In this document: positions 10,839-16,973 of the stretch, one piece after another
Layout of the letters: the number at the start of each line of letters is the position of its first letter
Numbering within the stretch: the stretch's first letter is position 1
Assembly: GCA_965215365.1 (NCBI GenBank)
Contig: CBDCDS010000003.1
Span: 96,001-160,000 of the forward strand
Direction of reading: 5' to 3'
DNA: 64,000 bases
Source of the DNA: Gammaproteobacteria bacterium
Lineage (GTDB): Bacteria; Pseudomonadota; Gammaproteobacteria; Eutrophobiales; Eutrophobiaceae
The notes under the pieces: model-generated
What the model saw: only the letters and a program-made list of their open reading frames with translations
Databases searched by the model: none
Told to the model about the DNA's origin: nothing
Made by a program: the position numbers and the translations under genes

Positions 10839-10928
10839 TGATTTTTAAGTGCAATAATAAATTACATTTTTGGACAGCGCTCTGCTATGCTTGCTGCCGT
10901 GCAGGGTCAAGCTCTGGGGGATTGCGCC

Positions 10929-13157
10929 ATGTTCAGATACATATTCGGCTGTGTGGGCCGTTGCTTGGGGGCGCGCCTGCCGGCGCCTGTGCGATGGGTT
11001 CTGCCACTACTGTTTCTGGTGGCGCCGCCAGCCTTTGCACAAACCGAACGCGCGCCGTCTTTTCCCCCTGGCACCGAAATCGGTGAGCTGGTTTTCAAAA
11101 AAGGTGTGCCCACAGGCGACATTGTCCTGCCGTCAGCCAGGGGGGGTGATGTTGATCCTGCAATCAATAACGGTGAACTCAGCGATTACAGCTTCGATCC
11201 GGCAAAATTACCGCCCGGCCTGGACTTTAACCGATTTACCCGCATCCTCAGCGGCACACCGAAATATACCATGCAGAAGCGAACCTATCATTTGTGGGTG
11301 CACGACGATGACGAGAACTGGTCGAGGTCTGATGCAGATTCCCTGCATTTCAGTATTGAAGTCATGGATGACAAGCAACAAACCGCCGTAAACAGCGTTG
11401 AACAGGCCGCTAAAGAAGAGGTCGCAAGTGCGCCGGCCAGGTTTGCCGCCGATTGACGATTACATCTACTATCAGCAGCAGGACTTGAAGAGGTCGCAAG
11501 TGCGCCGGCCAGGTTTGCCGCCTCCTTCGAATCCGAATTCCAATGGTTCAATAAGGATAAAAGACCCGGACTGTCAGGGGCAACTACATGGAACAGTACC
11601 GTTTGGCGCGGAGAACGCATACAGAAGCACATCCTGGTGACGCGCGCATCATCACGCGACAGGATTTCCATCAGCGCCGGTGATTTTGAAAGCCCGGCGG
11701 GCGTTATCCCGGCTGAGGCGTTGACGTTTCGCTATCCGCAATTTGTCAAGGGCGATATTGAGGCGCGTGATTGTGAAGGCTACCCGCAGCGCGCCGAAGC
11801 CGTATTTCTGTCCGACGCGTTGTTTCCACAACAGCCGCGACGGCAGGCGGGTTCCTATCCGGTCATGATCTGGGCGTCAATCGATATACCGGCGGACTCC
11901 CGACCCGGCGAGTATGTCGGCAATATTACCGTGAGTGCAACGTCAGGAGAGCAGCAAACCCTGCAGGTGGCATTGCGTGTGACACTATGGGCTATGCCCT
12001 CTCAACGACCGTTCCATTTGGACCTCTGGCAATTTCCCGTATCCGTGCTGGACCGTTACAACGATGCCAACGCAAGAAAGATAAAAGTCTGGTCTGAGCA
12101 ACACTATGCATTGTTGGAACCCACCTACCGCTATCTCGCAGAATTAGGCCAGCGCACTGTTACCACCTATATCAAGGAAGGCGCGTTTGCCGCGCCGTCA
12201 ATGATCCGCTGGATTGCCTTAGAGGGCGGCACGCGCTGGGATTATGACTACGCTGTGTTTGATGCACATGTCGAGCGTCTTGCCGAATGGGGTATTGATG
12301 ACCAAATCAGCGCGTTCTCCCCGATAGGGTGGAACAAGGATGAGCTGCCCTTTTGGGATGCAGCCACCGGCGCCAGTAAAGTATTCAAGTACAGTATAGG
12401 CTCAAAAGAATATAACGCCTTGTGGAACCACTTTCTCACCGATTTCAGAAAACATCTGGTTGAAAAAGGCTGGTTTGAAAAAACCGTGCTGTATATGGAT
12501 GAGGTGCCCAAAGAAGAAATGGAGTCGGTCATCGGTCTGATTCGCTTCAATGACAAGGATTGGAAAATCGGTCTGACCTACGGCCATGCCCCGGGAGTTA
12601 ACGTCATCGCCAGTCTGTATGACGTATCCGGATACTACGAAAGCGAAATTGAAGTACAGACGTACCCGGGGCAGGTCACCACGTTTTACACCAGTTGCTC
12701 GCTCCAACGCCCGAACAACTACGTGGCCGCCGATGCCAATCCGGCGGACATGACGGCCATGCCCTAGTATGCCATGTACCGGGGACACGACGGTTATTTA
12801 CGCTGGGCCTTCGACAACTGGAAGTCTTATGAGCCGCTGGACTTGCAGGAGGGCTCGTTTACAGCAGGCGATTTTTCCTTCGTTTACCGAAGCAGCAACG
12901 ACAAGGATATGACCATGATACCCAGCGTCAGGTCGGAACTGCTGCGGGACGGCATTGAGGATTATGAAAAGGCGCTGACACTGTACAAGACGATGCTGAA
13001 ATGCAAAAAAGAGGATTTACTGAGCGGTCTGGAGGAGACGATCAACACTTTTTCAACCGAGCGGTTGCTGGCCGGACAGGCGAGTGAGCTGATCATCCAG
13101 GCGCGTAGGCAACTGCATGAACTATCACAATCGACAACGCCTGACCTGTGTCAATAG
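10929..13157 (+). pseudogene. Ig-like domain + GH123/DUF4091 beta-N-acetylgalactosaminidase-like gene with two in-frame stops
   Basis: ORFs 10887, 11637 and 12774 share one frame; signal peptide, LPPGLDFN..LSGTP Ig motif, WRGER, FHLDLWQ, YMDE, GYLRWAFDNW, LRDGIEDYEK; stops TGA 11454 and TAG 12765. Confidence 0.85.
11415..11522 (+). repeat. Perfect 36-bp direct repeats (11415-11450, 11487-11522) around a 36-bp unique insert
   Basis: GAAGAGGTCGCAAGTGCGCCGGCCAGGTTTGCCGCC twice; flanking bases differ on both sides. Confidence 0.95.
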
Positions 13158-14451: not shown

Positions 14452-14543
14452 TCTGAAAAACATTTTGAAAACTTATTGCATTTTTATGGCGGCTGGTTTA
14501 GCATCGGCATAGAAGATTTGATTTAGCGTTGGGGGACGTGGTT

Positions 14544-16973
14544 ATGAGCAAATTTTTGACGAGGGGTGATCTGCATCATCGGCGAGTCCGGGGGCGGATA
14601 TCATCTGCGTTATTATTGTTAAGCTGTTGTCCGAACCTGATACTCAAAAATCTAGGCGTGAGCTTGCCGTGGGTTTTTCTGCTGCTGTTCCTTGTTGTCC
14701 CGCAAGCTTTTGCGCAAACCATCACACTCACGGCAACGGCCGGGCAGGGCCGGGTGGAGTTATCCTGGACACGAATAACCGGGGCAGGAGGGTACGATCT
14801 GTATTTTTGCGAGGGTGCCACCTGTACCGTCCCCACCTCCTCATTCCGCTACCCCCGGTTTGTCGCCGGTCATACCGAGGCGCGCAGTTGCAGCGTGGAT
14901 TACCAGCAAGAGAATACAACCGCTTACCTGTCCGATGCGCTGTTTGCCAAGCCGCCCCGGGCATTGCCGCCGCGGTGGCCCGAGCTGGTGTGGATGGCGG
15001 TGGATATCCCTGCCGACACTCCCGCCGGAGACTACTCCGGTACGGTGACTGTCAGCGCAGTCTCGGCAGAGACTACCACTGCCATGACCACGCTTGAGGT
15101 CTCGATTCAGGTTGTCCCGTGGACTCTGCCCGATGCAGAAAACCGGCAGTTCCACTTGGACTTGTGGCAGTTCCCCGTGTCCGTGCTGGATCGGTATAAC
15201 GATGCCAATCCGGATGACCTCATAGAGCTCTGGTCTGAGGCGCATTACGCCTTGCTGGAGCCCACCTACCGTTATCTGGCCGGCCTCGGCCAGCGCACCG
15301 TGACCACCTACATCAAAGAAGGCGCGCTGGGCGCGCCGTCCATGATTCAGTGGACGCTCAAGAGAGACGGCAGTTGGGAATACGATTATTCAGTATTTGA
15401 TACCTATGTGGAACGTCTTGCCGGCTGGGGGATCGATCGGCAGATCAGTGCATTCTCTCCGTTAGGCTGGAACAAAGGTGAGGTCCCCTATTGGGACGAG
15501 GCCAGTCAAAGCAAGATAACCTTCAGCGCCGAGGTAGGGTCCGCTGACTGGAATGAGCGCTGGGAGCATTTTCTGACGGATTTCCGGGCGCACCTGTTGG
15601 AAGAAGGATGGCTCGATAGAACGGTCATCTATTTGGACGAATCTTCCGCGGCAGAGGTGCAGGCCGTGCTCGATCTGGTAGGGAGTATTGATGATAACTG
15701 GAAAGTCGGGTCGGCTTATATCGGTTCCGGGCAGGACGGCCCCGGCGCAAGCATTCTCAGCAAGCTGTATGACGCTTCGGGTTCATTGGAGTACCGGTCT
15801 GCCATCGGCAGAACTTATGTGGACACCGGGCTGGTAACGGGCGAAACCTACCGCTATGCAGTGGATGCTGCCGCAGGTCCCGGCAACGCCAGCGCTCTTT
15901 CTTCCCCCGTTACGCTGGTGGCGCAGGTCCCCGCCGTGCCGGGACCACCCACCGACTTGACGGCGCTGAACATGTCGGGCGGAATTCAGTTGAACTGGAC
16001 CGAGCCCGCAGCAACCGGCAGCAGCGCTCTGACTGGCCATAACATTTATCGCTGCATCGATGTTGGCACTTCCTGTGCGCCGGCCTGGTTTGACAGTGTG
16101 ATCTCCGGCGCCACCTACACCGACTCCGATGTAACGGCGAGTACGAGCTATCGTTATACGGTGGAAGCCTGTAACGCCACCGGGGGCGGGAACCATTCCG
16201 GCGAGATAGCGGCGACGAGTGAGGTTACGGTCAATGTGCAGCCGAGTGACTCCCGTGATACAGCCGGAACCGGCGCAACGCCGCAAGCTCAGTCAGCGCC
16301 GACTGTGCCGACCGGTGTGACGGCGTTTGCCGCAAGCGCCACGGCAATTCAACTCGGCTGGGAGGGGAGCGCCGCCGCCGGCTTTGACGTGTACCGTTGC
16401 GTCGGGTCGCAGACCTGCACGCCTGACATCTATCTGGGCTGGGCTTATGCGGATAACCATGTCCCCGACCCGGCGCGGATAAGCACGTTCTACACAAGTT
16501 GCGCGCAACCGCGCCCGAACAGCTTCGTCGCTGCCAACGCAGATCCGACAGACCTGTCCGCGCTGCCCTGGCATGCGCTGCAAAGACGCCGGGACGGCTA
16601 CCTGCGTTGGGCGTTTGACAACTGGAGAGTTCCTGAGCCGCTGGACCTGCGTGAAGGGGCCTTTACCGCCGGGGATTACTCACTGGTTTACCGGAGCAGC
16701 AATGACAGGAGCATGACAGTCGTGCCCAGTATTCGTGCGGAGCTGTTGCGCGCCGGCATTGAAGACTTTGAGAAGGTGCAGGTATTACGTAACAGCTTGT
16801 CGGACTGCGCGGCGGACGAACTCGCCGGCAGGTGGCTGGAGCGGCTGGAGATGACGGTGGATACCTTCTCTGCCGCGCCGCTGGTGGCCGGCCGGGCCGC
16901 TGACCTCATCCGTCAGGCGCATAACCGGCTTGATGAAATCTCCTTGCAACTGACGCCGGACCGGTGTCGGTAG
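14544..16973 (+). CDS. Chimeric secreted protein: GH123/DUF4091-like domain interleaved with fibronectin type III domains
   Basis: Clear similarity to 11637-13157 paralog (FHLDLWQFPVSVLDRYNDAN, YLDE, GYLRWAFDNW) with FN3 segments at about 14720-14843 and 15800-16450. Confidence 0.85.
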   Translation: MSKFLTRGDLHHRRVRGRISSALLLLSCCPNLILKNLGVSLPWVFLLLFLVVPQAFAQTITLTATAGQGRVELSWTRITGAGGYDLYFCEGATCTVPTSSFRYPRFVAGHTEARSCSVDYQQENTTAYLSDALFAKPPRALPPRWPELVWMAVDIPADTPAGDYSGTVTVSAVSAETTTAMTTLEVSIQVVPWTLPDAENRQFHLDLWQFPVSVLDRYNDANPDDLIELWSEAHYALLEPTYRYLAGLGQRTVTTYIKEGALGAPSMIQWTLKRDGSWEYDYSVFDTYVERLAGWGIDRQISAFSPLGWNKGEVPYWDEASQSKITFSAEVGSADWNERWEHFLTDFRAHLLEEGWLDRTVIYLDESSAAEVQAVLDLVGSIDDNWKVGSAYIGSGQDGPGASILSKLYDASGSLEYRSAIGRTYVDTGLVTGETYRYAVDAAAGPGNASALSSPVTLVAQVPAVPGPPTDLTALNMSGGIQLNWTEPAATGSSALTGHNIYRCIDVGTSCAPAWFDSVISGATYTDSDVTASTSYRYTVEACNATGGGNHSGEIAATSEVTVNVQPSDSRDTAGTGATPQAQSAPTVPTGVTAFAASATAIQLGWEGSAAAGFDVYRCVGSQTCTPDIYLGWAYADNHVPDPARISTFYTSCAQPRPNSFVAANADPTDLSALPWHALQRRRDGYLRWAFDNWRVPEPLDLREGAFTAGDYSLVYRSSNDRSMTVVPSIRAELLRAGIEDFEKVQVLRNSLSDCAADELAGRWLERLEMTVDTFSAAPLVAGRAADLIRQAHNRLDEISLQLTPDRCR

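Follow-up and report, generated by a model that had tools for sequence, protein, structure and literature searches.

A 64,000-nt stretch of gammaproteobacterial DNA (the window; positions 96001-160000 of contig C3, part of the 2.73-Mb genome G000) contains a gene of the GH123 family that is interrupted at 11415-11522 by a repeat-insert-repeat unit of 36, 36, and 36 nt. We conclude, with a probability of roughly 0.8, that this unit arose by off-target (that is, non-array) full-site integration by a Cas1-Cas2 integrase, the enzyme of spacer acquisition in CRISPR systems. The event is of a known kind, and the unit is a new, unusually well-documented natural example of it. The link of Cas1 to these events, which we consider probable, is drawn from sequence evidence. 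In the mechanism that we propose, a 36-bp prespacer would have been cut from the organism's own TonB-dependent receptor gene beside a 5'-TTT protospacer adjacent motif (PAM); both of its 3' ends would then have attacked the GH123-family gene, one on each strand at points 36 bp from each other, and gap filling would have left a copy of the intervening 36 bp at each flank of the spacer, yielding the 36-36-36 arrangement.

Anatomy of the unit and source of its insert

The duplicated target lies on the plus strand at 11415-11450 (copy 1, which codes for EEVASAPARFAA in the frame of the gene) and again at 11487-11522 (copy 2). The copies are 100% identical, and a repeat search of the window gives their start-to-start spacing as 72. 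They enclose a 36-nt spacer-like insert at 11451-11486, which we place on the minus strand, the probable equivalent of the CRISPR RNA (crRNA) sense as judged from the 5'-TTT at its donor. The boundaries of the unit are sharp: the bases that precede the two copies differ (A vs. T), as do those that follow them (G vs. T). In the whole genome, the duplicated sequence is found at two places, both in the unit, and the insert has no similarity to the flanking sequence in repeat and genome searches. An exact 36-nt repeat together with an exact second copy of a 36-nt insert in 2.73 Mb cannot be chance.

The insert has exactly one other genomic copy, identical at 36/36 positions and located on the other strand at C3:2360856-2360891. 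The match ends exactly at the ends of the insert; when a 56-nt query that included flanks was used, only query positions 11-46 matched. This donor copy lies within a frame of 831 codons whose product has the Plug and barrel domains of a TonB-dependent receptor, and in the receptor frame it encodes IDDYIYYQQQDL. A 5'-TTT precedes the donor on the strand opposite the receptor coding strand; for a 36-mer drawn at random from this genome, TTN is found on one side or the other with a probability of 0.10. The donor is still intact, so the piece was copied, not moved.

These results bear directly on a prior sequence-only reading of the window, which had described the 36-36-36 structure and proposed possible off-target spacer acquisition. 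The structure is exact and its boundaries are unambiguous, and the proposal of off-target acquisition is supported after correction for a self donor, for a 36-nt duplication against 37-nt array repeats, and for a second stop codon in the gene. A foreign origin of the insert is ruled out, for its sequence recurs without a mismatch in one of the organism's own genes. Its alternative frame, IDDYIYYQQQD, had been likened to foreign protein; it is indeed a real coding frame, but one that belongs to the organism's own TonB-dependent receptor gene. The search for an origin and a PAM yielded a donor with a TTN-type flank in self DNA. The insert is also not a diverged local duplication, being unrelated to its flanks and having a distant donor, and on the same grounds we reject a tandem or slippage duplication. 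A transposable element with a target-site duplication was rejected as well: the repeat search of the window revealed no inverted repeats in or beside the unit, and the insert is a receptor-gene fragment that occurs once elsewhere.

The junctions that the earlier reading had wished to see confirmed in reads are present in contigs of public sequencing runs. Five public runs contain the stretch, and four were compared with it at the contig level. Runs X1, X2, and X4 are from one study, and X1-X4 are possibly the source of the assembly and so may not be independent of it; X5 is from another study and carries another organism label. In X1, X2, and X4, 60-nt k-mer contigs at 11421-11480 and 11457-11516 cover the first and second junctions with 30 nt on each side, the left-flank contig reaches 30 nt into copy 1, the right-flank contig takes in the last 30 nt of copy 2, and the repeat and the insert each have a separate 36-nt contig. 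This is exactly the structure expected of the unit. Thirty letters per junction side is one below the 31-letter bridging rule; it is, however, the maximum for a 31-mer graph, since one word further on would fall entirely within sequence present twice in the genome. Contig depths at the junctions and flanks, respectively, are 39.8/41.5 and 43.9/41.8 in X1, 156/158 and 143/144 in X2, and 95/107 and 151/123 in X4, where each contig has a single depth figure from which allele shares are not derivable. In X5, a 2234-nt contig follows the window from 11250 across copy 1 as far as 11480; there is no cover at 11481-11508, and the right-hand contig has an end at 11509, which may reflect a differing copy 2 or the filtering of short contigs. 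No variant letters were reported in the runs compared. At the loose contig ends, 11451 and 11486, the sequence continues into the flanks of the donor; therefore, the donor locus is intact in those samples.

An assembly or sequencing artefact would draw what support it has from the possible use of X1-X4 as the assembly source. We nevertheless find such an origin scarcely credible. The k-mer contigs were built independently of the assembly and contain both junctions in X1, X2, and X4 at depths similar to those of the flanks, and in X5 one contig passes through the left junction. Further, an artefact would not pair an exact 36-nt copy of a distant sequence with an exact 36-nt duplication, nor would it do so twice in one genome.

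CRISPR-Cas systems, further period-72 units, and the probable integrase

The genome has two CRISPR arrays. In array A (C3:474890-477583), a 37-nt repeat occurs 37 times without variation, and the 36 spacers range from 35 to 39 nt (n = 4, 11, 12, 6, and 3 for lengths 35, 36, 37, 38, and 39 nt). The neighboring genes encode Cas2, a 572-aa Cas4g/Cas1g fusion (822 bits against the I-G model), a 120-aa open reading frame (ORF) outside known families, an AAA ATPase, the I-G Cas3-extension protein, Cas3g, Csb2, and Csb1/Cas7g; as judged by this gene content, the locus is a complete type I-G system. We place the leader of array A at the end facing the cas genes and assign the crRNA sense to the minus strand, an orientation that we infer from the ATTGAAGC repeat end and an AT-rich flank. 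Array B (C3:1081905-1084179) is built on another 37-nt repeat, present in 32 identical copies, and its 31 spacers measure 31-38 nt, the mode being 36 nt (10/31). The genes beside it encode Cas6, Csm6, Csm1-5, an MntA/HepT pair, a CARF protein, Cas2, and a 324-aa Cas1, and the locus also has a 254-aa ORF with the N-terminal part of Cas1 only and a second Cas2. Its predicted products identify it as a type III-A system that carries adaptation genes of its own. Thus, cas1 and cas2, which the notion of ectopic adaptation calls for, are present twice. The 36-nt size of the insert is the modal or near-modal spacer length in both arrays (11/36 spacers in A, 10/31 in B); the earlier reading had asked for repeats and spacers of about 36 bp, and the repeats are 37 nt long.

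Several peculiarities of these loci merit mention. The order of the III-A adaptation region (L006 13379-15718; G000:C3:1079378-1081717) is Cas2, Cas1, the truncated Cas1-like ORF, and Cas2, and csm5 is separated from the CARF gene by the MntA/HepT toxin-antitoxin pair. Far from the arrays, a stray 90-aa ORF (L004 1492-1764; G000:C3:1530960-1531232) matches the Cas1 model over its first 76 positions only, and an AbiEii toxin-like ORF lies ~0.7 kb downstream of it. Several spacers of array B resemble one another.

To judge from spacer 18 of array A, the adaptation machinery of this genome demonstrably takes self DNA. This spacer (C3:476178-476213) is an exact 36/36 copy of C3:645672-645707, an AT-rich stretch between an unassigned ORF and dnaN, directly upstream of the latter. 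The flank of this donor is GAT, not TTN, and by the published TTN rule it would not license interference. The cumulative GC skew of the 2.63-Mb contig C3, in which dnaN is located at about 645.7 kb, changes sign ~8 times; the origin and terminus of replication are therefore not placeable, and hence neither are the donor positions relative to them. Other searches for protospacers had little yield. A comparison of array A with 50,697 phage records returned four marginal, GC-rich matches to Gordonia phages, all from one spacer (E values of 2e-3 to 6e-3), which we treat as chance. The cores of 5/36 array A spacers each had 0 exact matches in viral_contigs, and array A searched against 23 genomes of the genus, its own included, matched related arrays and the known self match only. 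Conversely, 11 spacers from the arrays of four relatives had 0 BLAST matches in this genome.

The earlier reading had raised the prospect of more such triplets in the genome, and two further units of period 72 were found. We searched for direct repeats with at least 29/30 identities at every spacing from 50 to 100, removed long runs and dense clusters, and then counted the copies of the repeat and gap of each candidate. Of 191 raw candidates, 19 remained after filtering. Sixteen of these have at least three copies within 1.5 kb and are internal repeats of repeat-rich genes or multi-copy families; isolated two-copy units account for 3/19, all with a spacing of 72, namely the window unit and those at C3:1190469 and C3:2240836. 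A more permissive scan (at least 29/34 identities, periods 60-85; 147 raw candidates, 11 after filters) contributed no new unit; it recovered units 1 and 2 and lost unit 3 to the neighbor filter.

Unit 2 (G000:C3:1190469-1190580) has an apparent 40-nt repeat and a 32-nt gap and is located in a Ser/Thr-kinase ORF. Its gap and adjoining bases match C3:2503717-2503753, inside a DUF547 gene, at 36/37 positions. Because the ends of the donor coincide with target bases, the split between duplication and insert is ambiguous: ten are possible, with duplications of 35-40 nt and inserts of 32-37 nt, and those with a TTN flank include a 36-nt duplication with a 36-nt insert and a 37-nt duplication with a 35-nt insert. 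The unit is in frame and without a stop, adding NATWQELLDSYL and a repeat of NNNGEHTTGPVQ to the kinase ORF, and its insert is read in the donor's own frame. In orthologs of the kinase, similarity ends at residue 287-317, at or before the insertion (approximately residue 313), such that they are uninformative on this unit. The kinase belongs to a locally amplified family (G000:C3:1189532-1204925), for which this genome has 4 matches, the searched relatives of the same genus up to 6, and a genome of the same class up to 8; its members have conserved kinase domains and unrelated C-terminal parts.

Unit 3 (G000:C3:2240836-2240941) is a candidate only. In it, 34 nt are duplicated exactly around 38 nt, or 36 around 36 with one mismatch. 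The duplicated stretch is promoter-like (TTGACA, 17 nt, TAGCAT), and two paralogous genes, at C3:386738 and C3:2381496, have it upstream of them with 97% identity. No donor for its insert was matched in this genome or in phages, or exactly in viral_contigs.

Perfect 72-nt tandem arrays at C3:2120406-2120841 (6.1 copies) and C3:2323419-2324214 (11.1 copies), with 100% match and in opposite orientations, were entertained as amplified repeat-plus-spacer units and rejected; they are strings of hairpins resembling repetitive extragenic palindromic elements, built as n x 72 + about 8 nt, and related units occur at scattered sites of the genome. Both arrays are made of one 72-nt unit, and they have the period of the ectopic units but an unrelated structure.

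The recurrence of period 72 is also pertinent to a Cas-independent origin, in which break repair or template switching would have placed 36 bp of filler, copied from a distant site, within a 36-bp tandem duplication. In principle, templated filler can be inserted where breaks are repaired, and a target without a leader-like motif would suit such repair. Yet no microhomology was detected between the flanks of the donor and the junctions of the unit, a fixed length is not expected of repair filler, and the sizes in the unit match the CRISPR unit of this very genome. Further, two more isolated units have period 72 and none has any other period from 50 to 100, and TT flanks occur at both donors. 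We therefore hold this origin to be quite improbable.

Integration by an adaptation module of this genome is thus preferred, and the type I-G Cas4g/Cas1g-Cas2 module beside array A is most likely the one responsible; the TT flanks favor it over the III-A module by about three to one. According to excerpts of one study (PMC6547450), the Cas4/1-Cas2 module of the G. sulfurreducens type I-U (now I-G) system yields, in E. coli, new spacers whose predominant length is 36 bp, with TTN upstream of >80% of all spacers and interference licensed by TTN only; ~70% of unique spacers came from the plasmid, so ~30% came from the chromosome. In type I-G integration, the non-PAM end goes to the leader side and the PAM end to the spacer side, as described in passages of another report (PMC10274657). 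By this orientation rule, the crRNA-like sense of the unit would be the minus strand of the window, and the right flank would be the side of the virtual leader.

An equal mechanism could have been executed by the type III-A-associated Cas1-Cas2 beside array B, and we judge this unlikely. The Cas1 (324 aa) and Cas2 of that locus are apparently intact, array B has 37-nt repeats and spacers most commonly of exactly 36 nt, and related spacers in arrays A and B indicate that both modules have been active against common targets. These related spacers (A16 with B06; A36 with B29 and B07) have 88.9-92.3% identity over 26-30 nt, are GC-rich and repeat-like, and have equal polarity relative to the crRNA sense of each array. 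On the other hand, both in-genome donors have TT where the TTN PAM of type I-G would be expected, and we know of no PAM selection in type III adaptation. Further, Cas4 was not found among the III-A locus ORFs scanned, and the truncated Cas1-like ORF and two cas2 genes hint at rearrangement there. Two donors with TT flanks, given how often TTN adjoins a random 36-mer, are suggestive but not decisive.

Would the unit function as an array? The repeat of array A folds to an 8-bp stem (-13.8 kcal/mol), whereas the ectopic copies have differing, scattered folds that lack this hairpin, a result that argues against crRNA production and not against integration. The duplicated sequence of the window unit is coding DNA unrelated to repeats A and B, and the unit holds a single spacer-like insert; for these reasons, we reject a functional CRISPR array. 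The processing of a crRNA from the unit is thus unlikely, and this would account for the lack of harm from a spacer that matches self.

The interrupted gene and the points against the conclusion

The gene that received the insert (10887-13157, plus strand) encodes a He_PIG Ig-like domain upstream of the unit and GH123 N-terminal and catalytic domains downstream of it. It is now a pseudogene in three open pieces (10887-11456, 11457-12767, and 12774-13157), the last of which encodes the end of the GH123 catalytic domain. Because the insert and the duplicated copy add 36 + 36 = 72 nt, the frame of ORF 10887-12767 is kept, although the insert carries an in-frame TGA on the plus strand at 11454-11456. 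A second in-frame stop, TAG at 12765-12767 on the plus strand, is an independent lesion; the ortholog in a same-genus relative (G001) has a Trp at that position (AMPWYAM). The GH123-family gene is therefore a decaying pseudogene with two independent lesions. The sequence-only reading had depicted it as knocked out by ectopic adaptation; the insert does supply a TGA, but the second stop leaves the insertion unestablished as the cause.

Among 30 other genomes searched, two same-genus relatives (G001 and G007) have orthologs, and 8 further genomes matched the insert only, through their own TonB-receptor genes. The G001 ortholog is one open frame of 756 aa. In both orthologs there is a single copy of the linker and nothing that matches the insert, and in a protein alignment all three sequences resume at FAASFESEFQWF; the 24 codons are therefore specific to the lineage of this genome. 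A search of metagenome_contigs for strains with or without the insertion gave 0 exact matches to the 36-nt repeat.

Approximately 1.8 kb downstream of the broken copy's frame is an intact GH123 paralog (14529-16973, plus strand; 814 aa) with an fn3 domain. It has 75% DNA identity to the broken copy over 356 nt and is clustered with genes for GH20, KDPG aldolase, and 2-keto-3-deoxy-galactonokinase. With this paralog intact, the loss of the broken copy may be tolerable.

Several observations weigh against our conclusion or narrow it. First, the duplicated stretch measures 36 nt, whereas all 37 + 32 canonical repeats have 37 nt, a shortfall of a single base. In passages on types I-E, I-B, and II-A, repeat length is described as being set by internal ruler motifs, the alteration of which shifts the second-site attack; a one-base shift is thus plausible at a target that has no ruler motifs. 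Second, the targets do not resemble the native integration site. When the three units were compared in both orientations with the leader-repeat junctions of both arrays, in-register identities were 13-24/76 (null mean ~18.7), and no leader-like motif was present at the three target sites. Excerpts on the P. furiosus and S. thermophilus integrases state that off-target sites in vitro tend to mimic the leader-repeat junction; this resemblance is a reported tendency, not a strict requirement. Third, the PAM statistic is weak with two donors only (roughly 0.1 x 0.1-0.2), and the TTN PAM is carried over from the published type I-G system; among the array spacers of this organism, a protospacer was found for A18 only, and its flank is GAT. 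Fourth, the insertion need not have killed the gene, given the second stop, and either lesion may have come first. Finally, unit 3 has no donor, and its exact duplication is 34 nt, reaching 36 only if one mismatch is allowed.

Significance and comparison with known systems

Natural examples of off-target spacer insertion are rare; good documentation of off-target Cas1-Cas2 integration is confined to over-expression in E. coli and to in vitro work. In this wild genome, every link of the chain can be seen: a donor, its PAM-type flank, the insert, the duplication, the cas genes, recurrence, and an uninterrupted ortholog. The unit thereby illustrates a concrete cost of adaptation, i.e., the insertional mutation of host genes by self-derived spacers, and it offers a concrete candidate for the birth of arrays; as the earlier reading suggested, it may represent the start of a new one. 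The shortfall of 36 vs. 37 nt bears on how repeat length is measured without ruler motifs. The approach also furnishes a search recipe that is applicable to any genome: isolated two-copy repeats at the genome's own repeat-plus-spacer period, with a gap that has a distant donor; its use would give the frequency of such events.

A bolder proposal is that the type I-G Cas4/1-Cas2 module is naturally and continually engaged in off-target activity on self DNA, having left three ectopic units in one 2.7-Mb chromosome. We view this as unlikely. On this view, one of the units breaks a gene, another adds 24 in-frame residues to a Ser/Thr kinase, and the third duplicates a promoter-like element. Were such units common wherever adaptation is active, Cas1-Cas2 would be an unrecognized source of 72-bp insertional mutations and of protein-coding novelty, and the units would be the real starting material for new arrays able to take further spacers.

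Insertion sequences and casposons are hundreds to thousands of bases long, are mobilized by a transposase or casposase, have terminal inverted repeats, and generate much shorter duplications. The unit has in common with them a direct duplication of the target around an inserted piece, but its insert is 36 nt long and has no inverted repeat. It has more in common with canonical type I-G adaptation, in which there is also a 36-bp spacer, a TTN PAM, a portion of spacers from the chromosome, and a PAM end at the spacer side; the canonical target, however, is the leader-proximal 37-nt repeat of an array, whereas that of the unit is coding sequence with a 36-nt duplication. Self-targeting spacers in genuine arrays, as portrayed in excerpts of PMC7708048, likewise derive from the host chromosome. 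In a real array, such a spacer is processed to crRNA and autoimmunity is possible, while the ectopic unit, having no repeat hairpin, probably gives rise to no crRNA. The "ectopic acquisition" of the S. thermophilus and S. mutans type II-A systems (PMC7999890, PMC5338259, and PMC8265633) resembles the unit in occurring away from the leader-proximal repeat; the streptococcal targets are internal repeats of an array, and the target of the unit is no CRISPR repeat at all.

A limited full-text literature search listed no paper on a natural off-target unit from a type I-G host, or on one whose self donor was identified. Nivala, Shipman, and Church reportedly described off-target integration and "neo-CRISPR" loci for the E. 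coli type I-E system (Nat Microbiol, 2018). Passages that cite this work speak of over-expressed Cas1-Cas2 in E. coli and of repeat-spacer-repeat units outside arrays, and a citing preprint calls the evidence for natural off-target events in two other species "circumstantial". Like those neo-CRISPR loci, the unit consists of a spacer-sized insert outside an array and a repeat-sized target duplication, and it is a possible seed of a new array. Unlike them, it is natural and resides in a host with type I-G and III-A systems; its donor and PAM-type flank are identified, its spacer is self-derived, and its target is unlike the native leader-repeat junction.

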